DNA of 52,240 bases from Candidatus Zhuqueibacterota bacterium (GTDB taxonomy: Bacteria; Zhuqueibacterota; Zhuqueibacteria; Oceanimicrobiales; Oceanimicrobiaceae), in the NCBI GenBank assembly GCA_022562085.1, contig JADFPY010000001.1:1-52240 (forward strand), written 5' to 3'. A program made the position numbers and the translations under genes. Every line of letters begins with the position of its first letter. Within the stretch, counting starts at the first letter, position 1. Shown piece after piece: positions 5,538 through 33,946 of this stretch. A model generated the notes under the pieces. That model searched no databases. It had not been told where the DNA came from and saw only the letters and a list, made by a program, of their open reading frames with translations.

Positions 5538-6476
5538 ATGCCTAGCAGCAGGATACTGGTTGTCGATGATGTCCCGGTAAATATTCAATTACTCGTTACC
5601 TATCTTGCTGCTGAAGGCTATGATGTCGTTTCGGCCAAAGATGGGCACGATGCGATGAAAGCGGTTAAGGAGCATCAGCCGGATTTGATTTTACTCGATG
5701 TTATGATGCCCAAAATGAATGGCTTTAAAGTCTGCGAAGTAATTAAATCTGATGACGCTACTAAATTTATTCCGGTGATTCTGGTGACGGCGCTTAACGA
5801 ATTGGAAGATAAAGTTAAAGGCATGAATTCCGGAGCTGATGACTTTTTGGCCAAACCGTTTAACAAATTAGAACTGCTTGTTAGAGTCCGTTCGCTATTG
5901 CGGATTAAGCATTTGCACGACGAGCTTCAGGAAAAAGTTATTGAGCTGCAAAGAACAAAAGAAGAATTGCGTCAGCTTGCTATTACAGATGGATTGACCG
6001 GTTTATATAATTATCGTTACTTCAAAGAGCAGTTGCTGCAGGAGTTAAAACGGGCGCAACGGCACAGTTTGAACATATCCGTTGTGATGATCGACATTGA
6101 TCACTTTAAACAATATAATGATAAAAATGGCCACCCTGCCGGCGACGTTGTCCTGAAAGACATTGCGCGATTACTTAGAGACAATATTCGAAATATTGAC
6201 CTGGCAGCAAGGTATGGCGGTGAAGAATTTTCCCTCATTCTCATTGAAACTGATAAACCGTCGGCAAAAATTGTATCTGAAAAAATAAGAAAGCTTGTCG
6301 AAGACTATGGTTTTGCTTATGAAAGTTCTCAGCCGGACGGTAAGCTGACCATAAGTACCGGTGTTGCAACATTCCCGGAAGACGGCGAAGATTTCGATAC
6401 TTTGGTCAGTAAAGCAGATCAACGATTATATCGTGCCAAAGAGGCGGGCAGGAACCTTATTTTTGTAGATTCATAG
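5538..6476 (+). CDS. Response regulator with GGDEF diguanylate cyclase output (PleD/WspR-like)
   Basis: REC motifs: LVVDDVPVN, DLILLDVMMPKMNGF, LAKPF. The GGDEF domain has an intact GGEEF and an RxxD I-site (RNID, five residues upstream). Confidence 0.9.
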   Translation: MPSSRILVVDDVPVNIQLLVTYLAAEGYDVVSAKDGHDAMKAVKEHQPDLILLDVMMPKMNGFKVCEVIKSDDATKFIPVILVTALNELEDKVKGMNSGADDFLAKPFNKLELLVRVRSLLRIKHLHDELQEKVIELQRTKEELRQLAITDGLTGLYNYRYFKEQLLQELKRAQRHSLNISVVMIDIDHFKQYNDKNGHPAGDVVLKDIARLLRDNIRNIDLAARYGGEEFSLILIETDKPSAKIVSEKIRKLVEDYGFAYESSQPDGKLTISTGVATFPEDGEDFDTLVSKADQRLYRAKEAGRNLIFVDS

Positions 6477-6481
6477 AGAGG

Positions 6482-7981
6482 TTGATGAAATTTCCATTTA
6501 TAAAAAGACCTTCAATTTTTAAGAAGTTATTTCTTTTAACATTTCTTGTTGCTGCAGTTCCAATTGGATTGTCCTGGATTTATTTTATCTACGTGGGCAC
6601 CGGCCTGGACAGCCAGGTTGATTTGCCCTTTGTCTATTACGGACTATTTATGTTGACTCTGTGTTTGGCTGTCATTGGCGCTTATTACTTTAGCAGGCAA
6701 ATCAGCCGTCCTATTACTCAGTTCAAAAATAGCGCCCTTGAAATTGCTCGCGGTAATTTCGACCATAAAATTTCAATAGATTCTGATGACGAAATAGGCA
6801 AACTGGCCAAAATTTTTGATTATATGACCGAGGAATTTCGCAAGCAGCATATTCAGGGAAGTCTGTCTCAGAAAAAGCAAATTGAGACGATTCTTCAGGA
6901 AATCGGGGATGGCGTTATTGTTACGGATGCGAATAATAAGATCCTGCGAATCAATTCAGTTGCAATTAAGTGGTTTAATTTGGATGAAAATAGCGAAAAA
7001 AAACCTCTTCGGGATTTAATTGAAGACGAAACATTGGTTAAATGTATAGATGAAATTGGCAGAAATAGCAAAAAGAAAAGTGCAACCATCGAGATAACTA
7101 CGTTACCGCTGGGTGAAACTAAACCCATAATTCTGCAAGCGTTGGCTTCCCGAATTGAAGACGACGAGGGCGTCGGAGCAGAAATGAATAACACGGAAGG
7201 GCTGATTGGTGTGGCGACGATTTTTCGGGATATTACCCGGGAAAAAGAAATAGATCGTTTAAAGACCGAATTGGTCTCTCTGGTTGCACATGAGCTCAGA
7301 TCCCCGCTCACTTGTATTTCCGGCTTTAGTGAATTGCTCCTGGATGAAACCATCACCCGCGATCAATCCGAGGAATATGCTTCCATTATCCTTAAGGAAT
7401 CAAATCGTTTAAGTGAGCTGATAAACAAGTTTCTGGATATTTCAAAAATTGAGGCTGGAAAAAGCCAGATTAGAAAAACTCCCGTCGATATAAAGATGCT
7501 GGTTGAAAAAGTACTGGATTTTAATTCTCAATTGGCTGACAGAAAGAAAATTAGTGTTACTTTAGAAGTGCCGTCGGAGGTCACGACGATTTACATCGAT
7601 CGGGATATGATGGAACAAGCAATTTTGAATGTATATTCAAATGCAATTAAATACAGCGCTGAAAAAGCCCACGTGACCGTACGGATCACTGAAAGTGAAG
7701 AGGAAATCCAAATCGGTATTGAAGATACGGGATTTGGTATTTCGGAGGAGTCGCTCCCACATATTTTTGACAAATTTTATAGAATCACTGATGACGAAAA
7801 AGTTCGAGATATCGCTGGCTCCGGATTAGGACTTTCATTAGTTAAGGAAATTGTAGAAATACACGGGGGTCTAATTAGGGTTAAGAGCAAGCTGGGTCAG
7901 GGGTCAACATTTACCGTCATTCTTCCCAAAAACAAACAAATGACAGAAGAGGAAAATATTGCTGAGCAGATGGCTGGTTAA
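6482..7981 (+). CDS. Membrane sensor histidine kinase (2 TM-HAMP-PAS-HisKA-HATPase_c)
   Basis: Two hydrophobic N-terminal segments. H-box VAHELRSPLTCISGF. ATPase boxes NAIKYS, DTGFGI, GSGLGLSLV. The start may be the ATG at 6485 rather than the TTG at 6482. Confidence 0.9.
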   Translation: MMKFPFIKRPSIFKKLFLLTFLVAAVPIGLSWIYFIYVGTGLDSQVDLPFVYYGLFMLTLCLAVIGAYYFSRQISRPITQFKNSALEIARGNFDHKISIDSDDEIGKLAKIFDYMTEEFRKQHIQGSLSQKKQIETILQEIGDGVIVTDANNKILRINSVAIKWFNLDENSEKKPLRDLIEDETLVKCIDEIGRNSKKKSATIEITTLPLGETKPIILQALASRIEDDEGVGAEMNNTEGLIGVATIFRDITREKEIDRLKTELVSLVAHELRSPLTCISGFSELLLDETITRDQSEEYASIILKESNRLSELINKFLDISKIEAGKSQIRKTPVDIKMLVEKVLDFNSQLADRKKISVTLEVPSEVTTIYIDRDMMEQAILNVYSNAIKYSAEKAHVTVRITESEEEIQIGIEDTGFGISEESLPHIFDKFYRITDDEKVRDIAGSGLGLSLVKEIVEIHGGLIRVKSKLGQGSTFTVILPKNKQMTEEENIAEQMAG

Positions 7982-8013: not shown

Positions 8014-9915
8014 ATGGATAATAACAAAAAGATAATTCTACTTGTGGATGATGATCCTGATATGCTTGAAATTGGCGGCATTATTGTTAAGCGAGCCGGA
8101 TATGGGTGCATCCCCGCTATGTCCGGAGAAGAGGGATTGGCCTCTCTAATCCAAAACAAGCCGGATCTGGTCATACTGGATTATATGATGCCTAACATGA
8201 ATGGGTTTGAGTTTTTCCAGCAACTCAGGCAAAATTCAAAATACAAAATTGTGCGGGATACGCCAGTTATTCTATTAACGGCTGCTTCTGAGAAAGAGAC
8301 AGAACGACAGAAGTTGTTCGAGTTAGGATTAAGCAATTTCCTATTGAAACCTTTTGGCAATCGCGAGTTGTTAAATATTATCGATAATGTCTTAATTCAA
8401 CATGAGCTACGTTTAAAAAATAAGGAGTTGCAAGAGCAGGTTAAGCGCATAGAATACAAATACCAGGACTTGATTGAGAATGCTAGTGATTTAATCTTCA
8501 CCTTAGATGTGCAGGCGAAGTTTGTTTTCATCAACAGACGCATGGCCACAATTTGTAAACAACATAGAGAAGATTGGATCGACAAGAGTTTTTTTGATAT
8601 TATTGTTGTCGAGGATCGGGAAGAGGCCGCAGCGAAAGTAAAGAAAACCATAGAAGGTCGGTCAAGAATTTTTGAAGTTCGGATTAAAAGCGAAAAGGGC
8701 AAATATATTTACCTTTCCATTAACATAAATCCAATATTCGAAAAGGGAGAAATTGTAGGATGTGTCGGTATTGCTCGGGATATCACCGAAAAGAAACAGC
8801 TAGGCCAGGAAATTGTTGAATTAAAAAATTTCAATGAGAGCATAATACAAAGTATAAGTTCAGGTTTAATTACAGTTGATCTGCATCATAAGATAACCTC
8901 TTTTAACCACAGTGCTGAAGAAGTGTTGGGATATCCGGAAATTGAGGTCATTGGCAAACCCTTAAATGAAGTTTTTGCAAAGGAAGATTGCGAAAAATTA
9001 CTGTCAAACATGGATGAGCCGGATAGAGAGCTTTTGAACCGTGAGATGCCGCTGACTGCCAAAGACGGCAATCGGGTTTATATCGGTTTTACCGTTACGC
9101 CAAGAATCGACACGCAAAATCGGCGGGTTGGCTCGATAATTTCTTTTAAGGACATTACGCAAATAAAACAGATGCAGGTCGAAGTTCAGAGGATGGATAG
9201 GTTGGCATCTATGGGGGTTCTGGCTTCAGGAATTGCCCATGAAATCAGAAACCCTCTCGCCGGTATCAAAACTATCGCCCAAACATTAGAGGAAGATATC
9301 GAGCCCGATGATTCCCGTCGTGAATATGTCTCCCGTATTGTTCGGCAAGTCAACCGGATGGATGATTTACTTAAGACAATCTTTTCTTATGCAAAACCCC
9401 GCCAGCCAAAAAGAAATTTGCACCGGTTCCAGGAAATAGTACAGGAAGTTGTTGCTTTATTGGAGAATCGAATGCGGGCACAATCTGTTAAATACATTGA
9501 AGCCTATCATTCTGATTTGCCCTTGGTTCATGTTGATTTTCATCAATTAGAACAGGTATTTGTAAATTTGTTTCTAAATGCCTTAGATGCCATGCCCAAA
9601 GGGGGCGAGTTAAAGCTCGAGGCCTATCCAAAAATAACGACGCTATGCCGTGTCGATCGGCGTGGGCGTTCTTTCTCGGTTCAAAACAAGAGCTCTCTGT
9701 ACACCGAGGTCAGCATAACCGATACCGGAGAGGGAATTGATTCGAGTAACCTGAATTCGATTTTCAATCCATTTTTCACCACCAAACCTCAGGGCTCTGG
9801 TTTGGGGTTGTCAATTGTTTATAGAATTATGTCGGAACATCAAGGAGATATCCAGGTAGGCACCACCACAAATAACGGTACGACATTTAAGCTCCTGTTA
9901 CCTACGGAGGGATAA
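8014..9915 (+). CDS. Cytoplasmic hybrid sensor kinase (REC-PAS-PAS-HisKA-HATPase_c)
   Basis: N-terminal receiver: LLVDDDPDM, DLVILDYMMPNMNGF, LLKPF. Two PAS-like segments. NtrB/AtoS-type H-box GIAHEIRNPLAGI. ATPase boxes DTGEGI, GSGLGLSIVY. Confidence 0.9.
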   Translation: MDNNKKIILLVDDDPDMLEIGGIIVKRAGYGCIPAMSGEEGLASLIQNKPDLVILDYMMPNMNGFEFFQQLRQNSKYKIVRDTPVILLTAASEKETERQKLFELGLSNFLLKPFGNRELLNIIDNVLIQHELRLKNKELQEQVKRIEYKYQDLIENASDLIFTLDVQAKFVFINRRMATICKQHREDWIDKSFFDIIVVEDREEAAAKVKKTIEGRSRIFEVRIKSEKGKYIYLSININPIFEKGEIVGCVGIARDITEKKQLGQEIVELKNFNESIIQSISSGLITVDLHHKITSFNHSAEEVLGYPEIEVIGKPLNEVFAKEDCEKLLSNMDEPDRELLNREMPLTAKDGNRVYIGFTVTPRIDTQNRRVGSIISFKDITQIKQMQVEVQRMDRLASMGVLASGIAHEIRNPLAGIKTIAQTLEEDIEPDDSRREYVSRIVRQVNRMDDLLKTIFSYAKPRQPKRNLHRFQEIVQEVVALLENRMRAQSVKYIEAYHSDLPLVHVDFHQLEQVFVNLFLNALDAMPKGGELKLEAYPKITTLCRVDRRGRSFSVQNKSSLYTEVSITDTGEGIDSSNLNSIFNPFFTTKPQGSGLGLSIVYRIMSEHQGDIQVGTTTNNGTTFKLLLPTEG

Positions 9916-9920
9916 GATTT

Positions 9921-11288
9921 ATGTCTAAGGGAAACATACTAATAGTCGAAGATAACGAAGATTTAGGCCTAACTCTGGCTGACGTTTTGAGAAAAGAAAG
10001 CAACAAAGTCAGCATTGCCTTAACCGGCGAGCATGCTTTGTCTGTCCTTCAAAAAGAGATAATCAACTTGGTTCTTTTGGATATTAAACTTCCCGACATT
10101 AATGGTATAGAGCTGCTTCAAAAAATTAAAGAGAAGGACCCGGATATTCTGGTAATTATGATAACTGCACTAACCGACGCTAAACCCGCGATAGACGCCA
10201 TGAAAATGGGCGCCTATGATTATTTGATGAAGCCGTTTGAATTGGATGAGCTTAAGATCGATGTGGCAAAAGCTCTGGAGACTCAGGATCTCAAAAGAGA
10301 GGTGACCCGACTCAAGAGCCAGCGCAAAGAGGCATTTCCAGACAATGAGCTTTTTGGAGAAACGGAACCGATACGCGAACTCAAGAAGCTGATTCATATC
10401 GTCGCATCAACACCGAAGACCTCTGTTTTGATTCAAGGTGAAAGCGGCACGGGAAAAGAGCTGGTTGCAAATGCTATTCATAACTGGAGCCAGCGTAAAG
10501 ATAAGCCGCTGGTTAAAATCAATTGCAGCGCGATTCCGGAAACTCTTCTGGAGAGCGAGCTGTTTGGTCATGAAAGGGGTTCGTTTACTGATGCCAAAAC
10601 TCTCAAAAAAGGCATCTTTGAAATGGCCAACAACGGCACGATTTTTTTAGATGAAATTTCCAGCATGCAGATGTCCATTCAACCGAAACTTTTGCGCGTA
10701 CTCGAAACCCAGTCTTTTCGGAGAATCGGCGGGACTTCAGACATCCAGATCGACGTGAGAATAATTGCCGCCACAAATAGAAATCTTGAAGATTGCATTG
10801 AGAAGCAGATTTTCAGGGAAGATTTATATTACCGACTGAAAGTGATGGTCATAAACATTCCACCGTTGCGGGAAAGGCAGGAGGATGTCATTCCGTTAGC
10901 TATGTTGTTTATTGAGCGAAACAACAAAGAAATTGTCAAAGAGATAAAAGGCATCTCTCCCGAAACTCAGGAGCGCATGCTGAAATACAACTGGCCAGGC
11001 AATGTTCGGGAACTTAAAAATGTGATCGAAAGAGCGGTTATTTTATGTGGCGAGGATAAACTCCAGTTAGACCATCTGCCGGAACTGCGAGATGGCGTTT
11101 CGAGACTAGGACCTTCCAAGGAATTTTCTTCCTTTTCAAGCGACGACGACTCCTTAGAAGCAATGGAGAAACAGCATATTTTTAGAATGCTGGAAAAATA
11201 TAACGGCAACAAGTCTCAAACTGCCCGAAACCTGAGCATCTCTCGTTCAACTCTTCGCGAGAAAATGAAAAACTACGGCATCGCTTGA
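9921..11288 (+). CDS. Sigma54-dependent response regulator (NtrC/AtoC family enhancer-binding protein)
   Basis: REC: ILIVEDNEDL, LVLLDIKLPDINGI, LMKPF. AAA+ domain: Walker A GESGTGKE, ESELFGHERGSFTDA (a variant of the GAFTGA loop), Walker B IFLDEI. C-terminal Fis-type HTH SQTARNLSISRSTLREKMKNYGI. Confidence 0.92.
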   Translation: MSKGNILIVEDNEDLGLTLADVLRKESNKVSIALTGEHALSVLQKEIINLVLLDIKLPDINGIELLQKIKEKDPDILVIMITALTDAKPAIDAMKMGAYDYLMKPFELDELKIDVAKALETQDLKREVTRLKSQRKEAFPDNELFGETEPIRELKKLIHIVASTPKTSVLIQGESGTGKELVANAIHNWSQRKDKPLVKINCSAIPETLLESELFGHERGSFTDAKTLKKGIFEMANNGTIFLDEISSMQMSIQPKLLRVLETQSFRRIGGTSDIQIDVRIIAATNRNLEDCIEKQIFREDLYYRLKVMVINIPPLRERQEDVIPLAMLFIERNNKEIVKEIKGISPETQERMLKYNWPGNVRELKNVIERAVILCGEDKLQLDHLPELRDGVSRLGPSKEFSSFSSDDDSLEAMEKQHIFRMLEKYNGNKSQTARNLSISRSTLREKMKNYGIA

Positions 11289-11494: not shown

Positions 11495-11510
11495 TGGTAC
11501 GGCCTTTGCT
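11495..11510 (+). promoter_or_regulatory. Sigma54 (RpoN) -24/-12 promoter
   Basis: TGGTACGGCCTTTGCT matches TGGCACG-N4-TTGCW with correct GG/GC spacing and one mismatch. It lies 50 nt upstream of the ParA-like start and directly downstream of an NtrC-type activator gene. Confidence 0.7.
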
Positions 11511-11560
11511 TTAATGATGCCAAAATAAGTTTATCAGAAATGACCAACTAAAGGAATGTT

Positions 11561-12379
11561 ATGGGAGAGGTTATCGCCATTTCCAGCCAGAAAGGTGGTG
11601 TTGGCAAAACGACAACAGCAGTAAATTTAGGCGCAAGTCTGGCCCATCTGGGGCATCGTGTCTTATTGATCGATATGGATCCCCAGGGAAGTGTTTCGGC
11701 AAGTTTCGGTCACAATCGTTATGATATCGTTGCCGGAATTATAGACATTTTTATTGAAGAGGTTCCAGTTTCAAAAGCAATTCATGCGACCGGGCAAGAT
11801 AATTTTGATTTTATCCCCACAAATTTATGGGCAGATGAAAGCGAAAAAAGAAAGTTAATTGGAATTGCTCCGAAAATACAATTAAAAAAGGTTTTGGAAC
11901 CCATTAAAGAAGACTACGATTTTATTCTGATTGATTGTCCGCCGTCTGTCGGAAATTTGACTTTTAATGCCCTGACAGCGGCCGACTCGATAATTATTCC
12001 AATCCAGTGCGAATACTACGCTCTCAAAGCTCTGGGACGCTTCCTGAAGCTCACCAGAATTATTAAAAATGAGTTGAATCCAAATTTAAGATACCGCGGT
12101 TTTTTGTTGACTATGGTGGATATACGAAATAAGCTCACTAATATAGTAATCGAAAAAATCCGGTGTACATTGCAGGGATTGGTTTTTGACACCATGATTC
12201 CAAGAAACATTAGGTTGGCCGAAGTTCCTTACCGCGGCGGTGCTGTGATAACCTTTGACAAAAGCTGCAAGGGTGCACAAAGCTATTTAGATTTAGCGAA
12301 CGAGGTCCTCGACCACAAAGTAAGAACCGTGGTAACCGCTGAAGAGTCTGAGAAAATAAACGTTGTAGAGGGAGTCTAA
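11561..12379 (+). CDS. Orphan ParA/Soj-family P-loop ATPase (no ParB partner nearby)
   Basis: Deviant Walker A SQKGGVGKTTTAVNLG, LIDMDPQG, Walker B ILIDCPPS. Soj-like C-terminal region IPRNIRLAEVPYRGGAVITFDKSCKGAQSYLDLANEV. Confidence 0.9.
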   Translation: MGEVIAISSQKGGVGKTTTAVNLGASLAHLGHRVLLIDMDPQGSVSASFGHNRYDIVAGIIDIFIEEVPVSKAIHATGQDNFDFIPTNLWADESEKRKLIGIAPKIQLKKVLEPIKEDYDFILIDCPPSVGNLTFNALTAADSIIIPIQCEYYALKALGRFLKLTRIIKNELNPNLRYRGFLLTMVDIRNKLTNIVIEKIRCTLQGLVFDTMIPRNIRLAEVPYRGGAVITFDKSCKGAQSYLDLANEVLDHKVRTVVTAEESEKINVVEGV

Positions 12380-12381
12380 TA

Positions 12382-12777
12382 TTGCCTACGATTCTTTTAG
12401 TTGAAGATGATACTAACACTCGTTTTGGACTTGCAGAGATTTTAACAAGTGAAGGCTACGACGTCGTATTAGCGGAGGATGCTGAGGAAGCCCTTGAAAA
12501 GGTAGACTGGGAAACCGACTTGCTATTATCAGATTTACAACTTCCCGGGATCTCTGGTTTGGCGTTGTGGAATCAAGCGAGGCAGCGGTACCCGGAGTTG
12601 GTTTCAATCATTATGACTGCATTTAACACTCCCGAAAATAAATTGCAAGCGGAGGATTCAGGGGTTTTCTCTTTTCTCAACAAGCCTTTGAATATTGATC
12701 AGTTGTTATCAGCAATAGAGAACGCACTGCTTCAAAATAAATTAAATGGGCGACATATTTTGATAAAGGCACTGTGA
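12382..12777 (+). CDS. Single-domain CheY-like response regulator
   Basis: TTG start 2 nt after the ParA-like stop. REC motifs: ILLVEDDTN, phospho-acceptor context LLLSDLQLPGISG, IMTAF, NKPL. No output domain. Confidence 0.85.
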   Translation: MPTILLVEDDTNTRFGLAEILTSEGYDVVLAEDAEEALEKVDWETDLLLSDLQLPGISGLALWNQARQRYPELVSIIMTAFNTPENKLQAEDSGVFSFLNKPLNIDQLLSAIENALLQNKLNGRHILIKAL

Positions 12778-13536
12778 TTGAATCGTGATTCATTTGAGTT
12801 CTTTTTAAATCGGAAGGAGGTAACGGTTTTGATAGTTTCATTTTTGGTTTCTATGTTTAAGAAGGCTTTATTTATGGGTCTCATGGTTTTGATGTTCGTA
12901 TCAGTGATGAGTTTTACCCACAATAATAGCTTAAAACTGCAGAAGGAACGCGAGACGCTCAGCGAAATCACGCGCGAGGTGCTGAACTATCAAGGGACTG
13001 TCAAGACAGAAAGTTTCCGAAAAAATGCCATCAACAAAATTATTGGCATCATTGACAGATATAATCGCACAATGAGTAGCAGCTTGAAATATGACATTGC
13101 CAGAGAAATCCAAAAGATGAGTGTTAAATATTCAAATTTGGATATCAATCTCATTTGTGCAACCATTACTCATGAAAGCGCGCGAAGTTGGCGGCCGGAA
13201 GTGGTGTCCCCGGCAGGAGCTTTGGGGTTGATGCAAATTATGCCATATACCGGGAAACATCTTGTCAAGCATGAAGGGATTAAGTGGACGTCTTCTAAGG
13301 AAGTTCTATTTAACCCGATTACCAATATAAGAATAGGCTGCCGTTATCTTTCCATGTTGGTTGAGCTTTACAATGTTGATGGCGGCCTTGCGGCCTATAA
13401 CGGCGGGCCAAGACGAGCCAAAAAATGGATTACCAGCGGGCGCAATTATGACGTTTTGCTGGAAGAAACCCGGTATTATGTACCCGCAGTTTTGGAATTA
13501 TATGATCATTATAAAAGCAGAACTTTGTTAGATTAG
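12778..13536 (+). CDS. Membrane-anchored lytic transglycosylase (SLT domain, GH23)
   Basis: Hydrophobic anchor ALFMGLMVLMFVSVMSF. Catalytic-Glu motif ATITHESARSW. GALGLMQIMPYTG and AAYNGGPRRA motifs. The true start may be internal, after the SD GGAAGGAGG at 12813-12821. Confidence 0.85.
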   Translation: MNRDSFEFFLNRKEVTVLIVSFLVSMFKKALFMGLMVLMFVSVMSFTHNNSLKLQKERETLSEITREVLNYQGTVKTESFRKNAINKIIGIIDRYNRTMSSSLKYDIAREIQKMSVKYSNLDINLICATITHESARSWRPEVVSPAGALGLMQIMPYTGKHLVKHEGIKWTSSKEVLFNPITNIRIGCRYLSMLVELYNVDGGLAAYNGGPRRAKKWITSGRNYDVLLEETRYYVPAVLELYDHYKSRTLLD

Positions 13537-13550
13537 GTTTAAGTTAAGAT

Positions 13551-15263
13551 ATGCCAGTAAAACCGAACGAGTTGTCAATAGATCATTTTCGTACCGAGCT
13601 GATAAATCGTTTTTTCCATTCTGAGAGTTACTTTTTACATTGTTTTGGCCACCACCTTCAGGCTTTCCTGGATGAGGGAGGCAACTCAAACAAGAATGAG
13701 TATCTGCTCGTCGGAAATTTGATGGATAAACTCGTCGCTTCTCAGAATGTCACTTCCGAATTCGAATCAATTTTAGCGCTGCAAGGTTTTGAAGAGTTCA
13801 AGGAAAGGCTCTCAAATGGAATTCAATACCTCTACGAGTCCGACCTGGAACCTGAAAAAATGAAAATCGAGATCGAGAGTCTGGCGCAATCGATGTTCGG
13901 CAGTGCAGTAGCTGCTTTTCAAAATGAAGAAAGCAATCATGAAATAAAAAGCCTGCTTGGGATTAATCTCATACCGGCAGATAGTGTAGATGTGTTAGAG
14001 TTACAGGAGCCATCTTCTGAAGGACCAGGATTAACGGAGTCAGAATTCTCAATGGAAGAGACAGACGGCATGGATGCCATTCCTCGGAACCAATTTGAAG
14101 AAAAGGATTTTCTTCTACCTGTGGATGAGGGCAAGGACGCGAACCCTGATGAACTGGAAGTTGGTTTGGTTGAAGAAGATGGCTCTCGTAACTCTGCCCA
14201 TGACGATGTTATCCTGATTAATAGTGAAGTAAGTCAGAAACCCGCAAGTGTTGATGAGGCCTTTCATTTGGCTGTGGGAAACCAAGTTAATGAATTACAG
14301 AATAAAATTGACCTTCTGAGCTCCGAGAACCATAACAGCAACAGCTTGCAGAAGTGTGATGAAATTTTTGAAAATATTCTTTCCAGTTCGATGATTTGTG
14401 GTTTTGACGCGGTTGAAGAAGTCGCTGCGCAAGCAAGAAGATTTTTAGCGAACCTAAGCAGACAGTCAAATTTTGACGGCTGTCTTGCAATCTCACTGCT
14501 GACAGAAACAGTCAGCGTTCTTAAGATGATTTTGGAAAACGACCCGGATAACGTTGACGAACAAGCAATTTCGAATCTTTCTCAAAACCTTCTGAACCCG
14601 AATACAGTTGTCCCTACCAAAGAAGACGCTTCCGTAGCGCCAAAACCAAATAAAGAAAAGAATGATGAGCCGGTTAATTCTGGGCACTCCAATCTTGATG
14701 AATTTAAACTACCTGGCGAGGATGAGATTTTTAGTTTAATTAGCGAAATATCTGGAAATAGTCCACTTCAACAAGGAGTGGATATGCCTCCGAAATCGTC
14801 ACCAGAGCCAGAGCCTGAAATTAGTGCTGACGTCATGCAGGCTGAACCTGAGGACTTACTTTCAAGTTATAAGCAGCAGGCGGAGCTTTATTTTAAGGTA
14901 ATTGAGCAAGCGCTGAATCTTCTTGAGGGGCAACCCGGCCATAAAACCGCTCTCAAAGATATTGAGCTCGCTTGCAAATCGCTCTACGAGCTTTTAATGA
15001 AAATGAACCTGGATTCCATCGCTAAAACACCTGCACTTATGTCCAAATTAATCAATAGCATAATAAGCAATAGATATTCGCTGTCCACACACGAGCATAG
15101 CTTAATCAAAAATTCACTCAAAGATTTTCATGATATTGCCAACGTAGTTGATACGGAAAGACGAGAGTTTAAGGAAAACCTCGCTTCACTACAATCTTTG
15201 AATTCAAAAATTAAAATGAGCCAATCTCCATTACCCGATGCCAGAACGATAGACAAATTTTAA
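13551..15263 (+). CDS. 570-aa hyper-acidic protein with two HPt/CheA-P1-like helical modules lacking the acceptor His (putative scaffold)
   Basis: Long D/E/P/S-rich low-complexity stretches (for example SSPEPEPEISADVMQAEPEDLL). Two segments (about nt 14280-14540 and 14866-15160) fit the HPt helix pattern by eye (...IFENILSSSMICGFDAVEEVAAQARRFL...; ...LACKSLYELLMKMNLDSIAKTPALMSKLI...). I recognise no other family. Confidence 0.45.
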   Translation: MPVKPNELSIDHFRTELINRFFHSESYFLHCFGHHLQAFLDEGGNSNKNEYLLVGNLMDKLVASQNVTSEFESILALQGFEEFKERLSNGIQYLYESDLEPEKMKIEIESLAQSMFGSAVAAFQNEESNHEIKSLLGINLIPADSVDVLELQEPSSEGPGLTESEFSMEETDGMDAIPRNQFEEKDFLLPVDEGKDANPDELEVGLVEEDGSRNSAHDDVILINSEVSQKPASVDEAFHLAVGNQVNELQNKIDLLSSENHNSNSLQKCDEIFENILSSSMICGFDAVEEVAAQARRFLANLSRQSNFDGCLAISLLTETVSVLKMILENDPDNVDEQAISNLSQNLLNPNTVVPTKEDASVAPKPNKEKNDEPVNSGHSNLDEFKLPGEDEIFSLISEISGNSPLQQGVDMPPKSSPEPEPEISADVMQAEPEDLLSSYKQQAELYFKVIEQALNLLEGQPGHKTALKDIELACKSLYELLMKMNLDSIAKTPALMSKLINSIISNRYSLSTHEHSLIKNSLKDFHDIANVVDTERREFKENLASLQSLNSKIKMSQSPLPDARTIDKF

Positions 15264-15300
15264 AGAAGATAAAGTTTTATTCGCATTACATCATGATGAT

Positions 15301-16941
15301 ATGGTTAGTACAATGGCAAACAAAATTAAGACTGAAATAGATAAGCAACTGGAAGCAGTTCTCAGTTCACATAAAACCAAAATTCGTATTGTCGGTACAG
15401 GTGGGGGAGGAAACAACACGGTCACCCGGTTAGTTGAAGTCGGCATTAGTGAGGTTGACGTAATTGCCGTAAATACGGATGCCCAGGACTTGCTCTATGC
15501 CAAAGCTGATCACAAGGTTTTGATTGGCAAAAACATTACCCATGGCCTGGGAGCTGGCAGCGATCCTCAAAAAGGTGAAGATTCAGCGAAAGAAAACATT
15601 GAGGAACTGGAGGAAGTTCTCTCTGACAGCGATATGGTTTTTATCACCTGCGGACTGGGCGGGGGCACAGGAACAGGTTCAGCTCCGGTCATTGCTGAGA
15701 TTTCCAAGAGATGTGGGGCACTGACCATAGCGGTGGTAACATTGCCATTTAGCGACGAAGGCGTTATTAGATGGGAAAATGCTCGAAAAGGCCTCGAACA
15801 GTTACAGAATAACGTTGATACGGTCATTGTCGTTCAGAACGACCTGCTATTAGATTTAGTTCCGGATATGCCCCTGAATGCTGCTTTTAAATTTGCAGAC
15901 GAAATTTTAGTGAATGCGGTTAAAGGAATCACCGAGCTGGTGACCGAGAAGGGCCTGGTAAATCTGGACTTTGCCGATGTGAAAACCATCATGCAAGGCG
16001 GCGGACTTGCGATGATCGGTTTGGGAGAAACAGATTCGCAAGAAAACATCGAAGAAGCAGCCAAGAAAGCGCTGGAAAATCCGCTGCTAGATATCGATAT
16101 TACTGGCGCGAAGAGCGCGTTGATTAACATAACCGGCGGTCAAGATATGTCTTTGAAGTCAGCGAAAACCATTATGAAGACAGTTGCCGAGCAATTAGAT
16201 CCATCTGCGAAAATTATTTGGGGAACCCGAATCGACGAATCTATGGGGCAGTCCCTGAGAGTGATGCTCATCGTGACCTGCTTGAAATCCGGCCAACCCT
16301 CGACCTCTGGGAAGGAAACCCGGCCGAGCTTCGAAATAAGTGACGAAACGTCTTCCCAAGATGAAGCCGAAGAGGTTCAAGTGGTTGAAAATTCAGACAC
16401 AGCTTCGCAGCATCCTTCCAAATCTCAAAAAGTATTTTCCGAAATTTTCATGGAAGAGACAGAAACGGACATTTCAGTCCTGGAAGAAGCGATTAATAAC
16501 TTAGCTGTAGAAAGTGGTGAGAACGAGAAACATCTTAGTGACATTAGCACCTCTGCTTCATCTATTTACAGTTCATCTGAATTGTTTGATTATGACAAAA
16601 TATCAGAGTTCGCAGAACTTTTGGGAGAAGTTACTAAAGATGCATTAAATGGTAAACTCAATCTTTCTGAAGACGTCATAGAATTATTTCAACAAATGCC
16701 TTCAGCGTTAAGAAGTGCCACGAAAGGAGATGGAAAAGACCTCGAAGAGATAAAGCAAAGTATTCTGAAGTTACTGGACTCGATTATTCAATCGCGCGAC
16801 ACCGATTCGGCTCCGGATTTTGAATCCACTGATGAAGAGCCTGAGATTCTTAATGAATCCGAAGCTCAGGAAGAGGAAGTTGAGGATCTTGAGCATACAA
16901 ATGTTCGTGAAACGGTAAAATACTTTGATAAACTGCTTTAA
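15301..16941 (+). CDS. ftsZ: FtsZ-family tubulin-like GTPase with about 210-aa C-terminal extension (acidic linker, HPt-like module, acidic tail)
   Basis: Motifs present: IRIVGTGGGGNNTV, NTDAQDL, GLGAGSDPQKG, tubulin signature FITCGLGGGTGTG, VVTLPFSDEG, T7 loop NLDFADV, and C-terminal domain motifs AMIGLGE...ALENPLLD...INITGG. There is no adjacent ftsA or other dcw genes. Confidence 0.9.
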   Translation: MVSTMANKIKTEIDKQLEAVLSSHKTKIRIVGTGGGGNNTVTRLVEVGISEVDVIAVNTDAQDLLYAKADHKVLIGKNITHGLGAGSDPQKGEDSAKENIEELEEVLSDSDMVFITCGLGGGTGTGSAPVIAEISKRCGALTIAVVTLPFSDEGVIRWENARKGLEQLQNNVDTVIVVQNDLLLDLVPDMPLNAAFKFADEILVNAVKGITELVTEKGLVNLDFADVKTIMQGGGLAMIGLGETDSQENIEEAAKKALENPLLDIDITGAKSALINITGGQDMSLKSAKTIMKTVAEQLDPSAKIIWGTRIDESMGQSLRVMLIVTCLKSGQPSTSGKETRPSFEISDETSSQDEAEEVQVVENSDTASQHPSKSQKVFSEIFMEETETDISVLEEAINNLAVESGENEKHLSDISTSASSIYSSSELFDYDKISEFAELLGEVTKDALNGKLNLSEDVIELFQQMPSALRSATKGDGKDLEEIKQSILKLLDSIIQSRDTDSAPDFESTDEEPEILNESEAQEEEVEDLEHTNVRETVKYFDKLL

Positions 16942-16964
16942 TTTCAGCTGCTAATATTGAAAGC

Positions 16965-17534
16965 ATGAACTCGTCAAGTATGCAGGATCCCTCATTGCAA
17001 AAACCTTATGTTCGCAAGGTAATGCGAGGTTTAAAAAAGATAAGGATTGCCCTTGCCAGGGTTCATGACAACCCGAACAATCGCGATGCTTGTATTGAAA
17101 TTCGGAACACAGCCCAATCAATTTCCGAACTTGCAATGATACATGGGTATCACGGCGTCGAAAGCATCGCGCGCAAGATTTATACCTCATTTAAGCGGTC
17201 CAAAATTAAATCAGATCCTGATTTTCTTTACAAAATCGAACTCGCTGTCAAAGGCATTCAACGTGTGGTGGGAATGGAAGACGGGATAGAGAGTAAATTG
17301 ACCATTGAAAAGGTAACTCGGGGCGCGAAAGAGGTCTCTAAACAAATCTCAAGTCTCGATGAGCTTAGTGAAGAGCAGCGCCAAATGGTTGAATTGGAAA
17401 GTGACGCGAAACTTTTATTTGATATAAAAGAGAGCGATTTTTTAAACAATATTCCAGGTGTACCCATCTCAAAAAATATAAAAACCGATCTTAAGATCAA
17501 CCCGAACCGGCAAGATACCTTCCTGAGCAGATAA
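16965..17534 (+). CDS. 189-aa HPt/CheA-P1-like protein without acceptor histidine
   Basis: VMRGLKKIRIALARVHDNPNNRDACIEIRNTAQSISELAMIHGYHGVESIARKIYTSFKR...DPDFLYKIELAVKGIQRVV fits the HPt four-helix pattern by eye. Gln occupies the position ten residues before the conserved Gly, where His is expected. Confidence 0.4.
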   Translation: MNSSSMQDPSLQKPYVRKVMRGLKKIRIALARVHDNPNNRDACIEIRNTAQSISELAMIHGYHGVESIARKIYTSFKRSKIKSDPDFLYKIELAVKGIQRVVGMEDGIESKLTIEKVTRGAKEVSKQISSLDELSEEQRQMVELESDAKLLFDIKESDFLNNIPGVPISKNIKTDLKINPNRQDTFLSR

Positions 17535-17561
17535 ATAAAATCGTCTCATAACACCTCCGAC

Positions 17562-17592
17562 GCCAGCTTTTCAATCGAAAGGCTGGCTTTTT
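17562..17592 (+). terminator. Rho-independent terminator closing the ParA-to-HPt operon
   Basis: GCCAGC (17562-17567) pairs with GCTGGC (17582-17587), followed by TTTTT. Confidence 0.6.
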
Positions 17593-19318: not shown

Positions 19319-19570
19319 CTAAAGATTGTTGACAAAGATGGTTAGTCGTGATTTTTGATTTGCCGCTTTATTGCGATGAATAATCCGTTTTGAAGCAAGT
19401 TTGTCCAGCAAAGATGAAGTGCGTGGTAAAATCTTTTCTGCATCCTCCTTTGTTTTTGAAGAAAGCACATCTTTGATTGTTGATTTCAGCATCGACTTGT
19501 AATGCCGATTGCGTTGTCTTGATTTTTCACTTCTCCGAATCCGTCTAACGGATGATGCATAATTAGCCAT
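19319..19570 (-). CDS. rpsT: 30S ribosomal protein S20
   Basis: MANYASSVRRIRRSEKSRQRNRHYKSMLKSTIKDV... is a small, basic, typical S20. Confidence 0.95.
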   Translation of the reverse strand: MANYASSVRRIRRSEKSRQRNRHYKSMLKSTIKDVLSSKTKEDAEKILPRTSSLLDKLASKRIIHRNKAANQKSRLTIFVNNL

Positions 19571-19793
19571 TTTCCCTAACGTATCTCCTTAATATTCAAT
19601 TTTTAGTGTCCAAATATACGAAAATAGATCACTTTTGTCAATAGAAAAAACCGAGTCAGTTTTTTTTAGATTTTCTTGATCGGCTTTGGTTTAATGCCTA
19701 TATTTCAAAACAAAGAAAGAAGAGTCGTAAGAATTAAAAAGCAGAAATATCGCTCGCAAAAATTGAACTGCACAGAAAATAATTTGGTAAAAC

Positions 19794-22430
19794 GTGTCTA
19801 AATCTGAGCCCCAAAAAAAGACCCCCATGATGGAACAGTATCTTTCCATCAAAGCAAAACATCAGGATTCAATTCTCTTCTTTCGGATGGGGGATTTCTA
19901 TGAGCTGTTTTTTGATGATGCCAAAACTGCCTCTGAAGTCCTTGGGTTGACCCTTACCTCACGCGCGCACGGTAAAAAATCCGCGGGCGTGCCTCTCGCC
20001 GGTTTTCCTCACCACAGTCTTGATACTTATTTATCCAAAATGATTAAAGCGGGATTCCGGGTTGCAATTTGCGAGCAGCTTGAAGATCCCAAAGCCACCA
20101 AAACCATTGTGAAGCGTGATGTCACCGAAATAATTACACCCGGCACGGTTCTAGCAGATGATTTGCTTGACAGCAAGCGGAATAATTTTTTGTGTTCGCT
20201 TTATTTTAAAAAAGAAATCTGTGGTCTGGCAAGGGTCGATATTTCTACAGGTGAATTTACCGTCTACGAAATGCCGATCGAACAATTTGTTGAAGAAATT
20301 AAACGAACTTCACCTGCGGAGATTCTACTTTCCGAGGAGCAAGCTGCGTTTGTAGAGGGAAAATTAGGTACGGTAGAAAAATACTTTCTCACAAAACGGG
20401 AGGAGTGGATATTTTCACGGGATTATGGCTACGAAACCCTGACCACTCATTTTGGGACACTCTCTTTGAAAGGCTTCGGCTGCGATGATCTGGACACGGG
20501 AATATGTGCGGCTGGCGCTGCGTTCCATTACTTAAAAGAAGTTCAAAAGTCCCACTTGCTGCACATCAGCCGAATCCAACGTCAGTCCGCAAACGAATTT
20601 GTAGGCATCGACAGCGATACCAGGAGAAATCTGGAGCTGCTTAAATCCCTGCGAAGCGGAACCAGTCAGGGAACTTTGATTTCAACAATCGATAGAACCA
20701 AAACGGCAATGGGGGGACGCAAGCTGGTGCAGTGGATGTTGAAGCCGCTGCTGAATCCAAATCAAATTCGGAAAAGATTAGACGCCGTTGAAGAACTTAA
20801 AAAATCTACTAACGTGCTGAGCGAGGTTAGTGAGATCCTTGTACGCATTGGCGATCTTGAAAGATTTGTCTCGAAGATCATTACGAACCGCGCCACTGCA
20901 CGGGACATAAATGCTTTAAAGAACTCTTTAAAAACATTTCCTGAATTAAAAAAGAGCCTGGGCAAAGTAGAGAGTACCGACCTGATCTCGGTTCGTGATA
21001 AGATTGATAACTTAGAAAAGCTGGTTGTGAAGATTGAAAAGGCAATTGTCGATGACCCGCCGCTGGCAGTTACCGAAGGCGACATCATCAAGCGGGGTTA
21101 CGATAAAGAGCTTGATGACTTGAGAGACATTTCCTATTCCGGGAAAGATTGGATTGCCCGGCTGCAGGGCCAGGAGCGCGAAAAGACCGGCATCCCATCT
21201 TTGAAAGTAAGCTTCAACAAGGTATTCGGATACTACATTGAAGTTACCAAACCGAATCTTTCCAAAGTCCCGGATTATTACACCCGCAAGCAAACCCTGG
21301 TCAACGCCGAAAGATTCATCACACCGGATTTAAAGGCATACGAAGAAAAAATTTTAGATGCGGATGATAAAATTGTTACAATCGAGTACGAGCTTTTTGA
21401 TCAAATTCGCAAGATGGCTGCGGAACAAGCCAAAACAATCCAAAAAAATGCGCAGTTGATTAGCACGCTGGATTGTTATGCCGGTTTTGCACAACTCGCG
21501 GTCGAAAATAACTACGTTCGGCCTGAAATCAACGATGGTTCACAAATCTCGATCATGGAAGGCCGTCACCCGGTGGTGGAAAAGCTGCTGCCCTACGGTG
21601 AATCTTTTATTCCCAACGACAGCCAACTGGATGCAAAAAAGGAGCAAATCATTATCTTGACCGGACCAAACATGGCGGGAAAGTCAACCTATTTGCGGCA
21701 GGTTGGTTTGATTGTTTTGCTGGCGCAAATGGGGTCTTTCGTACCCGCGAAAGCAGCGAAGATTGGGGTGGTGGATAAAATTTTTACCCGGGTCGGTGCT
21801 TCGGATAATTTAGCCGGTGGTGAAAGCACATTCCTGGTTGAGATGAATGAAACTGCGAATATTTTAAACAACGCCACGCCAAAGAGCTTGATTTTACTCG
21901 ATGAAATCGGCCGTGGCACCAGCACTTTTGATGGACTTTCGATTGCCTGGGCCGTGGCCGAGCACCTTCATAATTCACCCCAAGTCGCCGCTAAAAGCAT
22001 TTTCGCAACCCACTATCACGAGTTGACCGAACTCGCTTTAATTCTAAAAAGAGTAAGAAATTACAATGTTGTGGTTAAGGAATGGGGAGAAAATGTCGTT
22101 TTTCTAAGAAAGATCGAAGAAGGCGCCTGTGATCATAGTTATGGCATTCAAGTGGCCAAATTAGCAGGTCTTCCGAACTCACTACTGAACCGTGCAAAAG
22201 AAATTCTTTCGAACCTTGAAGCGGATGAATTGACGACAAATAATCTGCCGAAATTGGCCATGAGCAAAAATGGTCATTTGAAAATGAATGATAAACAATT
22301 AGATATTTTTGAAAAACAGGAACAGGTCATTCGAGCTGAAATCCAAGACTTGAAGTTAGAGGAAATGACGCCTTTGGAGGCTTTGAATAAACTAAATGAG
22401 TTGAAAAATACGGTTGACGGGGCGAACTAG
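19794..22430 (+). CDS. mutS: DNA mismatch repair protein MutS
   Basis: GTG start. TPMMEQYLSIKAKHQDSILFFRMGDFYELFFDDA, Walker A GPNMAGKSTYLRQ, DEIGRGTSTFDGLSIA, FATHYHEL. Confidence 0.97.
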   Translation: MSKSEPQKKTPMMEQYLSIKAKHQDSILFFRMGDFYELFFDDAKTASEVLGLTLTSRAHGKKSAGVPLAGFPHHSLDTYLSKMIKAGFRVAICEQLEDPKATKTIVKRDVTEIITPGTVLADDLLDSKRNNFLCSLYFKKEICGLARVDISTGEFTVYEMPIEQFVEEIKRTSPAEILLSEEQAAFVEGKLGTVEKYFLTKREEWIFSRDYGYETLTTHFGTLSLKGFGCDDLDTGICAAGAAFHYLKEVQKSHLLHISRIQRQSANEFVGIDSDTRRNLELLKSLRSGTSQGTLISTIDRTKTAMGGRKLVQWMLKPLLNPNQIRKRLDAVEELKKSTNVLSEVSEILVRIGDLERFVSKIITNRATARDINALKNSLKTFPELKKSLGKVESTDLISVRDKIDNLEKLVVKIEKAIVDDPPLAVTEGDIIKRGYDKELDDLRDISYSGKDWIARLQGQEREKTGIPSLKVSFNKVFGYYIEVTKPNLSKVPDYYTRKQTLVNAERFITPDLKAYEEKILDADDKIVTIEYELFDQIRKMAAEQAKTIQKNAQLISTLDCYAGFAQLAVENNYVRPEINDGSQISIMEGRHPVVEKLLPYGESFIPNDSQLDAKKEQIIILTGPNMAGKSTYLRQVGLIVLLAQMGSFVPAKAAKIGVVDKIFTRVGASDNLAGGESTFLVEMNETANILNNATPKSLILLDEIGRGTSTFDGLSIAWAVAEHLHNSPQVAAKSIFATHYHELTELALILKRVRNYNVVVKEWGENVVFLRKIEEGACDHSYGIQVAKLAGLPNSLLNRAKEILSNLEADELTTNNLPKLAMSKNGHLKMNDKQLDIFEKQEQVIRAEIQDLKLEEMTPLEALNKLNELKNTVDGAN

Positions 22431-33313: not shown

Positions 33314-33946
33314 GTGCTCTTTAAAAAACAGACAATACTGATCGGCTTCTTATGGCTCATTGCAAGTCTTTCAAATCGTTGTTTGGCTCAAGAAAGCAAT
33401 TTTCAGTTTATTTCAAGTTTGACAGACAGCTTATTGGATCTGGCTACGACTCAAATACCTGGTGAAAAGACAAGTCAAGCTATTCTTAGAGGTTTAGAAG
33501 ACAACAACATAAACTGGTTTTTTGAAGATAGACTTGTAGAGTTATTAAAACGAAAGAATATAGCTCATATTTATTTTGAAGATCAAGTTGACAGATCACG
33601 TGGTTCTGTGAATTCATCCCTGACTTTTCAATATAAAGTATCGAAACTGGACGTTAAATATAACAAGCAAAGCAGGAATTCAAATAGGGTTAAAAGAATT
33701 GCTGAAGTTGGCTTTTTTTTGAGAATTATTCAACATGCCACGGGGACGGTTTTATTGAGTAAAAACTTCGAAGCAACGAAAGAAGGGTGGCTTGATGTAA
33801 ACCAGGAAAATTTGCAACAGACAAAAGATATTCAATTTAACCAGGGTCAACCAAAACAAAAAAAAAGAAATATCCTTCAACCGATATTAATTTCAAGTAT
33901 TACTGGCATTATCGTATATTTGTTTTATGGATTGCGGAGCCGATAA
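33314..33946 (+). CDS. Hypothetical exported protein with C-terminal TM helix
   Basis: GTG start. N-terminal signal (ILIGFLWLIASLSNRCLAQ). C-terminal hydrophobic helix (ILQPILISSITGIIVYLFYGL). I recognise no family. Confidence 0.45.
   Translation: MLFKKQTILIGFLWLIASLSNRCLAQESNFQFISSLTDSLLDLATTQIPGEKTSQAILRGLEDNNINWFFEDRLVELLKRKNIAHIYFEDQVDRSRGSVNSSLTFQYKVSKLDVKYNKQSRNSNRVKRIAEVGFFLRIIQHATGTVLLSKNFEATKEGWLDVNQENLQQTKDIQFNQGQPKQKKRNILQPILISSITGIIVYLFYGLRSR

Follow-up and report, generated by a model that had tools for sequence, protein, structure and literature searches.

Does an FtsZ that is encoded together with a ParA-type ATPase, a response-regulator receiver, a lytic transglycosylase and two scaffold proteins belong to the housekeeping divisome of its host, or is it the core of a separately controlled assembly? 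The question is raised by six genes at 11561-17534 on the + strand of the window, i.e. of the whole 52,240-bp contig analysed here, which is part of a metagenome-assembled genome (MAG) labelled 'candidate division KSB1 bacterium', KSB1 being the uncultured phylum Zhuqueibacterota. An earlier inspection of the letters (the sequence-only reading) had taken these genes for a conditionally expressed, phospho-signal-gated FtsZ module. The anatomy of the module is solid, and from it we infer the mechanism. On balance we lean towards a conserved, signal-controlled KSB1 module by which an FtsZ assembly is both built and placed, to serve septation and cleave the wall locally, and that uses a dead phosphotransfer domain as its interaction currency.

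Pseudo-P1 domains in FtsZ and its partners

The GTPase core of the module FtsZ is intact. It scores 414 bits against the equivalog model TIGR00065 (cutoff 295.2), and both the GGGTGTG signature (aa 120-126) and the T7 synergy loop NLDFAD (aa 221-226) are present. The sequence-only reading had described a complete FtsZ with a long C-terminal extension. The complete core stands, but the extension consists of a folded, His-less domain resembling the P1 domain of CheA and of a terminal peptide. This layout was derived from an alignment of 89 full-length homologues. Beyond the GTPase core, these share a conserved block of ~125 residues (window aa ~378-505), an acidic linker and a conserved terminal peptide.

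The profile of the conserved block, hereafter the C-terminal domain (CTD), matches the P1 (Hpt) domain of Salmonella CheA (1I5N, E 9.6e-8) and an engineered CheA-P1 repeat protein (8e-17). With the single FtsZ sequence, the Pfam Hpt model (PF01627) gives 24.0 bits, slightly below its cutoff of 24.6. The AlphaFold2 (AF2) model of the CTD has pLDDT values >90 across the domain and superimposes on 1I5N_A in Foldseek with a TMt of 0.83 and an r.m.s. deviation of 1.9 Å. Foldseek next lists other P1 structures of CheA, among them 2LP4 and 3KYI, in which P1 is bound to CheY. A search of a representative library with this profile gave no clean count of FtsZ-P1 fusions; most of the proteins matched are very large and contain several Hpt-like stretches.

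In the hidden Markov model alignment, the phospho-accepting His48 of CheA corresponds to Ser420 of FtsZ. The six commonest residues in this column of the 89 homologues (S35, T18, A9, L7, I7, Y3) do not include His. The Lys-Gly pair following His48 is also lost, with Tyr, Asn or Gln at the position of Lys51. Judged by these residues, the FtsZ pseudo-P1 domain cannot accept phosphate. Within the CTD, conservation is highest in helices A and B, near the place of the former His. This side presumably corresponds to the receiver-docking face of CheA P1 in the P1-CheY co-structures (3KYI, 2LP4).

The canonical C-terminal peptide of FtsZ is of the D-I-P-x-F-L-R type and binds FtsA or ZipA. No DIPxFLR-type peptide is present in the module FtsZ, the C-terminus of which is VRETVKYFDKLL. 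Its peptide is also kept in FtsZ-P1 variants of 650-760 aa.

Protein X (570 aa) is acidic, with a pI of 4.45 and a net charge of -56, as the sequence-only reading had it. It has no match in Pfam or NCBIfam, is annotated just as 'hypothetical protein' and has 31 word-searchable relatives. Profiles of X and of the small protein Y were built from neighbouring open reading frames (ORFs) of related loci. In the AF2 model, a helical N-terminal domain (aa 10-136) is followed by a disordered acidic linker, a first pseudo-P1 domain (P1a, or X-mid), a linker with a short helix (aa 390-400) and a second pseudo-P1 domain (P1b). The X-mid profile matches CheA 2LP4 in the PDB at 2e-5, and the model aligns to 1I5N with a TMt of 0.76-0.79. 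Glu or Asp occupies the His48 position of X-mid in seven of ten sequences. With hhalign, the FtsZ CTD aligns to the C-terminal domain of X with 96.8% probability (E 2.7e-10) and to X-mid with 92.6%, and Y aligns to X-mid with 97.2%.

The N-terminal domain of X has eight invariant residues (F13, E16, L17, R20, F21, S26, Y27 and F28). No relative of it was detected, and its hhalign probability to P1 is below 1%. Foldseek with full-length X retrieved CheA P1 structures alone and nothing for this domain. The short motif between the pseudo-P1 domains has the invariant residues P388, G389, E390, E392, I393 and L396. Residues 390-400 are modeled as an isolated helix (pLDDT ~63) with disorder on both sides, and the motif is a candidate binding peptide. 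Its ED(D)EI..LI part may resemble the CheY-binding peptides of FliM and CheZ. An FtsA-, ZipA- or SepF-like anchor was also considered for X and was ruled out, as no similarity to any of these is found in Pfam, NCBIfam or the PDB.

Protein Y was first described as HPt-like. No Pfam or NCBIfam match exists, yet its profile matches the P1 domain of Thermotoga maritima CheA (1TQG, E 5.6e-4), which bears this out. Its pseudo-P1 domain contains the LAMIHGY motif with the invariant residues LAM.HG and is followed by a conserved FDI.E motif. The His48 position is variable, with no His. In several relatives (L006 at ~11150-11176, L009, L010, L011 and L012) Y ends in TLDLF, TMDLF, AMDLF or TLELF, resembling the QL[SD]LF beta-clamp-binding motif. 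The window Y ends differently, in …NRQDTFLSR.

Thus, three module proteins contain four pseudo-P1 domains (one in FtsZ, two in X and one in Y), and these are the unifying feature of the module. Because all of them are devoid of the phospho-accepting His, they cannot take part in a phosphate relay.

Conservation, control and remaining genes of the operon

Relatives of the locus were collected by look-ups and by a scan of genome contigs. The search patterns were taken from a subset of nine CTD sequences, the alignment of 28 being too diverse; a scan of the contigs with the single FtsZ protein gave no match. The module is found in ~13 distinct lineages (L001/L002, L003/L006, L008, L009, L010, L011, L013, L018, L019, L020 and L023 carry it), usually followed by guaB and rpsT. 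The gene order is kinase - activator - (PATAN-REC or REC) - ParA - (REC) - SLT - X - FtsZ - Y. Identities between the window proteins and those of the other loci are ~50-80% for FtsZ, 59-77% for ParA, 25-68% for X and 22-72% for Y. The combination of ParA, receiver, lytic transglycosylase (SLT), scaffold and FtsZ is therefore conserved across many genomes, where the sequence-only reading had asked whether it recurs at all. Nor did it know of any described system of this kind: literature searches on FtsZ in KSB1 and Caldithrix, on the dcw cluster in Calditrichaeota and on FtsZ with an Hpt domain likewise brought up no paper that describes this set of genes or a fusion of FtsZ to Hpt.

Neither ftsA nor mur genes are located within 10 kb of the module FtsZ in the ~13 lineages or anywhere in the window. 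Nearly all loci have, along with the module, a gene that contains a receiver (REC, PATAN-REC or both). PATAN-REC is the first module gene in most relatives, and the window has none at that position. SLT is present in every module variant seen, including the reduced one of L016/L017 (8003-11965). This occupies the same chromosomal position and consists of PATAN-REC, a 68-aa ORF with no Pfam match, SLT and FtsZ-P1. In L001 the module has no adjacent kinase, activator or REC. Two PATAN (PatA_N) genes, one of them with a receiver, lie 8 kb downstream in that locus (19642-21707), beyond guaB and rpsT. In two further lineages an FtsZ-P1 of 650-750 aa directly follows a gene for an AMP-binding enzyme (L015 10001-12256, L024 3225-5171). 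The linker of these proteins is very long and rich in Pro, Ala and Glu. The surrounding genes encode a glycosyltransferase, TPR proteins, a Ser/Thr kinase and FHA proteins, and ParA, SLT, X and Y are absent. The loci L005 and L010 (SMXC01, SMXE01) were deposited as 'Caldithrix sp.', but are assigned to the order CR04bin15 of KSB1 by GTDB as well as by Li et al. 2022. The labels 'Calditrichaceae' and 'Cytophagia' on other module loci may be equally unreliable, so that the taxonomic spread of the module is uncertain.

The -24/-12 promoter motif TGGTACGGCCTTTGCT is the sole match to TGGYAYN5TTGCW on both strands of the 52,240-bp window, where ~0.20 matches are expected by chance. It is located 3' of the activator gene and 50 bp 5' of the parA start codon, which confirms the near-consensus promoter of the sequence-only reading. 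Equivalent motifs precede the first module gene in ten other loci (L001, L006, L008-L011, L013, L016, L018 and L019). In nine of the ten the motif comes after the activator gene; the exception is L001, which has no activator gene nearby. Loci with a strict-pattern match have no second match within ~20 kb. L020 gave no match. The conserved placement of the motif strongly suggests, on comparative grounds, that both the sigma-54 promoter and the functional unit are real. Expression of the operon looks sigma-54 dependent. The gene rpoN is not among the genes of the 52-kb contig. It is present (K03092) in 41 of 44 KSB1 MAGs (PMC9012183, Suppl. 7).

The sigma-54 enhancer-binding protein (EBP) noted just upstream in that reading is indeed encoded there, together with a sensor kinase. 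Orthologues of the EBP are 75-80% identical to it. Those of the kinase (67-75% identity) directly precede the EBP gene in L006, L008-L011 and L013. The sigma-54 contact loop of the EBP (aa ~215-225) reads GSFTDA instead of the canonical GAFTGA. The orthologues in L003, L006, L008-L011 and L013 have GAFTDA, a conserved lineage-specific variant of GAFTGA. Further upstream, a REC-GGDEF (diguanylate cyclase) gene and a HAMP-PAS kinase gene form a pair that is also found upstream of the module in L016/L017 and L018 (L016 1063-3539, L018 1-2060), and the HAMP-PAS kinase is found there in L019 and L020 as well. This pair may provide an additional input to the module. The kept position of the diguanylate cyclase gene in distant relatives hints at a cyclic di-GMP input to the locus.

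The best PDB match of the module ParA is 8RAY from Myxococcus xanthus (212 bits, E 8e-62), followed by Soj (1WCV and 6IUB, ~160 bits, ~1e-46). MinD scores ~60 bits, and assignment of the protein as a MinD was ruled out on these scores. We take 8RAY to be the ParA of the M. xanthus ParA-ParB preprint (10.1101/2025.03.14.642875), which cites this entry. The NCBIfam model ParA_partition gives 116 against a cutoff of 180, and the Pfam MipZ model matches weakly, with 54 bits in the N-terminal half, Soj/ParA being far closer. The motif PRNxRLxExP is kept. By analogy with Soj, we propose that it is the DNA-binding region. The sequence-only reading regarded ParA as an orphan. No ParB-like ORF is present among the window ORFs of at least 120 aa, and none adjoins ParA in any examined locus, which agrees with that view. 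The orphan status itself is unproven because KSB1 genomes carry ParB elsewhere.

The receiver is a stand-alone domain as described in the sequence-only reading, but it is closest to the NtrC receiver (1DC7) and not, as had been assumed, to CheY. Its phospho-acceptor residues are all present (D9/D10, D51, T79 and K101). The third gene product was correctly recognized as a membrane-anchored GH23 enzyme. It has an N-terminal hydrophobic anchor and the motifs ES (THESARSW), GLMQ (GLMQIMP) and AYNGG (AAYNGGP), and it matches the catalytic domains of Slt70 and MltC. Profile searches with Pfam and NCBIfam likewise support the product classes predicted for ParA, the receiver and FtsZ.

The coordinates of all features are listed in the table. 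The six ORFs of the operon with their gaps of 2, 0, 14, 37 and 23 nt were reproduced exactly, and the stem and T-run of the terminator were confirmed at 17562-17587.

Table. Features of the module locus in the window.
Feature	Position	Strand	Basis
REC-GGDEF gene	5538-6476	+	Pfam
HAMP-PAS histidine kinase gene	6482-7981	+	Pfam
Sensor histidine kinase, REC-PAS-PAS-HisKA-HATPase_c	8014-9915	+	Pfam
NtrC-type sigma-54 EBP, REC-AAA+-HTH_8	9921-11288	+	Sigma54_activat 230 bits
-24/-12 sigma-54 promoter motif TGGTACGGCCTTTGCT	11495-11510	+	TGGTAC-N5-TTGCT
Soj-type ParA ATPase, 272 aa	11561-12379	+	AAA_31/CbiA, deviant Walker A KGGVGKT (QKGGVGKTT)
Single-domain response regulator (REC), 131 aa	12382-12777	+	Response_reg 84.7 bits
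Membrane-anchored lytic transglycosylase (SLT, GH23)	12778-13536	+	SLT 79 bits
X, N-terminal helical domain (aa 1-139)	13551-13967	+	alignments, AF2 pLDDT ~85
X, first pseudo-P1, CheA Hpt-like (X-mid/P1a, aa ~231-350)	14241-14600	+	profile, Foldseek
X, short motif FKLPGED(D)EI..LI.EI in disordered acidic linker	14706-14750	+	alignments, AF2
X, second pseudo-P1 (P1b, aa ~435-557)	14853-15221	+	hhalign, AF2 pLDDT ~90
FtsZ, GTPase core and FtsZ_C (aa 1-340)	15301-16320	+	Tubulin 153.7 bits, FtsZ_C 112.7 bits
FtsZ, C-terminal pseudo-P1 domain (aa ~378-505)	16432-16815	+	profile, AF2, Foldseek
FtsZ, conserved C-terminal peptide VRETVKYFDKLL	16903-16938	+	family consensus V.EAVKY.DKLF
Protein Y (189 aa, basic)	16965-17534	+	pseudo-P1 aa ~10-125
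Intrinsic terminator	17562-17592	+	11-bp stem, 4-nt loop, T-run

The window has a flat composition with ~41% GC, and all but two of the 46 ORFs with 120 aa or more run in the + direction. Its GC skew is positive in all 2-kb bins, and the contig probably lies on one leading-strand replichore arm throughout. The only two annotated genes on the - strand are rpsT (19319-19570) and an OmpR-type regulator (38143-38838). Apart from the module, housekeeping genes predominate (guaB, rpsT, mutS, dnaB, relA/spoT, succinyl-CoA ligase and a fab cluster). Pfam matches nothing at E <= 1e-4 in four sizeable ORFs of 342, 343, 210 and 437 aa (22616-23644, 32215-33246, 33314-33946 and 39552-40865, respectively). 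Because the composition is flat and the synteny with guaB and rpsT is conserved, an origin of the module from a mobile element or a horizontal island was ruled out.

One or two FtsZ proteins, and a proposed working of the module

Copy numbers of ftsZ were taken from the KEGG table (K03531) of 44 KSB1 MAGs (Li et al. 2022, PMC9012183, Suppl. 7). The counts per MAG are 1, 2, 2, 2, 2, 2 in clade I; 1, 2, 2, 2, 2, 2, 0, 2, 1, 2, 2 in clade II; 2, 2, 1, 1, 1, 1, 1, 1, 1, 1, 1, 1 in clade III; and 1, 2, 2, 2, 1, 2, 2, 2, 2, 2, 2, 2, 2, 2, 1 in clade IV. Overall, two copies are present in 27 MAGs, one in 16 and none in one, while ftsA and ftsQ are mostly single-copy (PMC9012183). The 'Caldithrix sp.' MAGs of the genus N075bin58 belong to clade IV (PMC9012183, Suppl. 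1), and all three MAGs of this genus have two ftsZ genes. The locus L005 is from isolate N075bin58 and is 94% (GuaB), 91% (MutS) and 80% (FtsZ) identical to the window. From this near-identity we infer that the window organism belongs to KSB1 clade IV. Since its N075bin58 relatives have two ftsZ genes, it very probably has two as well, together with ftsA and rpoN, the second ftsZ being the one counted in the published KEGG table. The module is then probably one of two FtsZ systems in this lineage.

The situation differs in clade III. The module FtsZ P0108 (L023) is encoded by the clade III MAG GCA_014729735.1, which has one ftsZ and one ftsA. Two sister MAGs, each 95.5% complete, also have one ftsZ each (PMC9012183). 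In clade III, the module FtsZ seems to be the only FtsZ. This argues for a competent division protein, and the module is not necessarily an alternative to the housekeeping divisome. The claim of the sequence-only reading that this FtsZ is a paralogue and not the dcw copy is accordingly the likelier case in the window lineage, with its two ftsZ genes and ftsA, but does not extend to clade III.

The signal-controlled module could work as follows. The PAS kinase would phosphorylate the EBP, which would activate sigma-54 transcription of the six genes. FtsZ-P1 would polymerize, and X, Y and FtsZ would be linked to each other and to receiver domains via the P1 face at which CheY-type receivers normally bind. 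The REC protein of the operon and, in relatives, PATAN-REC are candidates for such a receiver. The phosphorylation state of the receiver would gate assembly without any phosphotransfer. Nucleoid-bound ParA would position the X/FtsZ complex, as PomZ does with PomXY, and the anchored SLT would cut peptidoglycan at the site so chosen. Budding and membrane remodelling, which the sequence-only reading had offered as further outcomes, find nothing in their support. A more specific version is possible but doubtful. In it, the P1 domains that lack His in FtsZ, X and Y would have been converted from chemotaxis phosphotransfer domains into adaptors that read the phosphorylation of REC or PATAN-REC. Two-component signalling would then gate the Z-ring post-translationally and the operon via sigma-54, and in clade III this would be the sole FtsZ system.

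Several observations weigh against a signal-controlled module. The contact loop of the EBP deviates from GAFTGA. The reduced module of L016/L017 is devoid of ParA, REC, X and Y, and the modules of L001/L002 and L020 contain no REC, so that no single partner is obligatory. The second ftsZ of clade IV is a KEGG count whose linkage to dcw is assumed, and incompleteness of the MAGs could explain the single ftsZ in clade III. Furthermore, the pseudo-P1 domains could be mere oligomerization or spacer modules that are unrelated to receiver docking.

The last point leads to an explanation that we regard as improbable, in which the pseudo-P1 domains are purely structural. They would be helical-bundle spacers or would self-associate and bundle FtsZ filaments with X and Y, and REC would act elsewhere, e.g. 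as a phosphate sink for the upstream kinase. Loss of the phospho-accepting His in all four domains would fit this role, as would the absence of REC from some module variants and its likeness to the NtrC receiver rather than CheY. Conservation in the FtsZ CTD, on the other hand, peaks where the His would be, in helices A and B, presumably the receiver-docking face, and a receiver gene travels with the module in nearly every locus; even in L001, PATAN-REC genes are located 8 kb downstream. Still less credible is a function outside division, i.e. that the module positions or assembles a polar or envelope-spanning machine such as a chemotaxis array, flagellum or pilus. FtsZ would then be a track, the P1 domains relics of a CheA/ChpA pathway, ParA a counterpart of ParC/PpfA, and SLT would make the hole in the peptidoglycan. 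No che, fli or pil genes are located within 10 kb of the module in any examined locus, and the clade III MAG of L023 (GCA_014729735.1) has the module with cheA, cheW and cheY counts of 0 and no flagellar genes reported, which disfavors a machine-positioning role. The His-less pseudo-P1 domains, moreover, allow no phosphate relay. In favor of such a role are a P1-like profile that also matches multi-Hpt proteins of 1000-2700 aa (taken as ChpA/CheA-like by size and repeat number), a match of SLT to NF047373, the model for lytic transglycosylases of flagellar assembly, that stays below threshold (69.5 bits, cutoff 234), and flagellar and chemotaxis genes in KSB1 clades II and IV, including the window lineage.

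Of greater weight, though in our view still unlikely, is the possibility that this is the lineage's housekeeping ftsZ operon. Here ftsZ would have left the dcw cluster in a KSB1 ancestor and gained division partners specific to the lineage, with ParA for spatial regulation, X and Y to anchor or bundle the Z-ring and SLT to split the septum, and the module would be the main organizer of the divisome. It is unusual, however, for an essential gene with constitutive expression to depend on its own sigma-54 activator, and ftsA is present although the module FtsZ has no canonical FtsA-binding peptide. The TIGR00065 score far above the cutoff, the intact catalytic motifs and the guaB/rpsT synteny kept across deep divergence are nevertheless what favors it, and no family member adjoins ftsA in ~13 lineages. 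The copy numbers point both ways. Only one ftsZ is counted in clade III MAGs, among them two that are 95.5% complete, and in GCA_014729735.1 it is the module copy, whereas 27 of 44 KSB1 MAGs have two, including all three N075bin58 MAGs closest to the window. The housekeeping explanation is thus plausible for clade III and less so in the window lineage, for which a signal-controlled second FtsZ system is preferred.

Comparison with known systems

To our knowledge, the regulation of FtsZ has been studied almost wholly in a few model phyla, in which the linker is disordered and control is exerted by Min, Noc/SlmA, MipZ or PomXYZ. The module adds a whole uncultured phylum with an FtsZ bearing a folded, signalling-derived linker domain. 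About 0.6 kb per genome is missed by current Pfam models and is labelled 'hypothetical protein' or plain 'FtsZ'. If the proposed working is true, environmental sensing would be tied directly to septation, and the pseudo-Hpt domain would be a clean natural case of reuse as a protein-interaction module. KSB1 also offers a comparison of two-FtsZ and one-FtsZ lineages inside one phylum.

The components of the module are members of known families, and positioning of FtsZ by ParA-type proteins is already known. What is unusual is the dead phosphotransfer domain within FtsZ and its partners; we have not seen control of bacterial cytokinesis gated in this manner described. Compared to the dcw-cluster FtsZ of Escherichia coli and Bacillus subtilis, the module FtsZ has the same GTPase core, T7 loop and FtsZ_C domain. 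It differs in its location away from ftsA and dcw, in the folded domain within the normally disordered linker, in its non-DIPxFLR peptide and in its sigma-54 promoter.

The pseudo-P1 domains share with CheA P1 (1I5N, 2LP4, 3KYI) the helical-bundle fold, the N-terminal F..F..E..E..L helix and the helix-B motif. In contrast to CheA P1, they have Ser, Thr or Ala (FtsZ), Glu or Asp (X-mid) or a variable residue (Y) in place of His48, and Lys51 and Gly52 are lost. No kinase domain is attached; instead, the domain is fused to FtsZ or to the scaffolds.

FimL is built of non-phosphorylatable Hpt-like domains. In Pseudomonas aeruginosa, the polar localization of the single-domain response regulator PilG depends on FimV and FimL (PMC12632253). 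The FimL-FimV-PilG system is a precedent for a scaffold that localizes a receiver, there in type IV pilus signalling and with no ParA or FtsZ. In Anabaena, binding of divisome proteins is documented for PatA, which is of the PATAN-REC type (PMC7380572). This is a precedent for the PATAN-REC gene of most module relatives. Unlike the module, Anabaena PatA is not encoded with ftsZ, and no pseudo-Hpt domains are involved.

The closest functional parallel is formed by PomXYZ of M. xanthus and MipZ of Caulobacter, in which a nucleoid-associated ParA-family ATPase determines the site of FtsZ assembly. The module would resemble these in combining a ParA-family ATPase with large scaffold proteins, and among solved structures its ParA is nearest to the chromosomal ParA of M. 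xanthus. Apart from CheA P1, no relative of X or Y was found in Pfam, NCBIfam or the PDB, and neither is detectably similar to PomX or PomY. Furthermore, the module genes share an operon with ftsZ, a receiver and SLT under sigma-54-type expression, and a pseudo-Hpt domain is common to the scaffolds and FtsZ, which distinguishes the module from both PomXYZ and MipZ.

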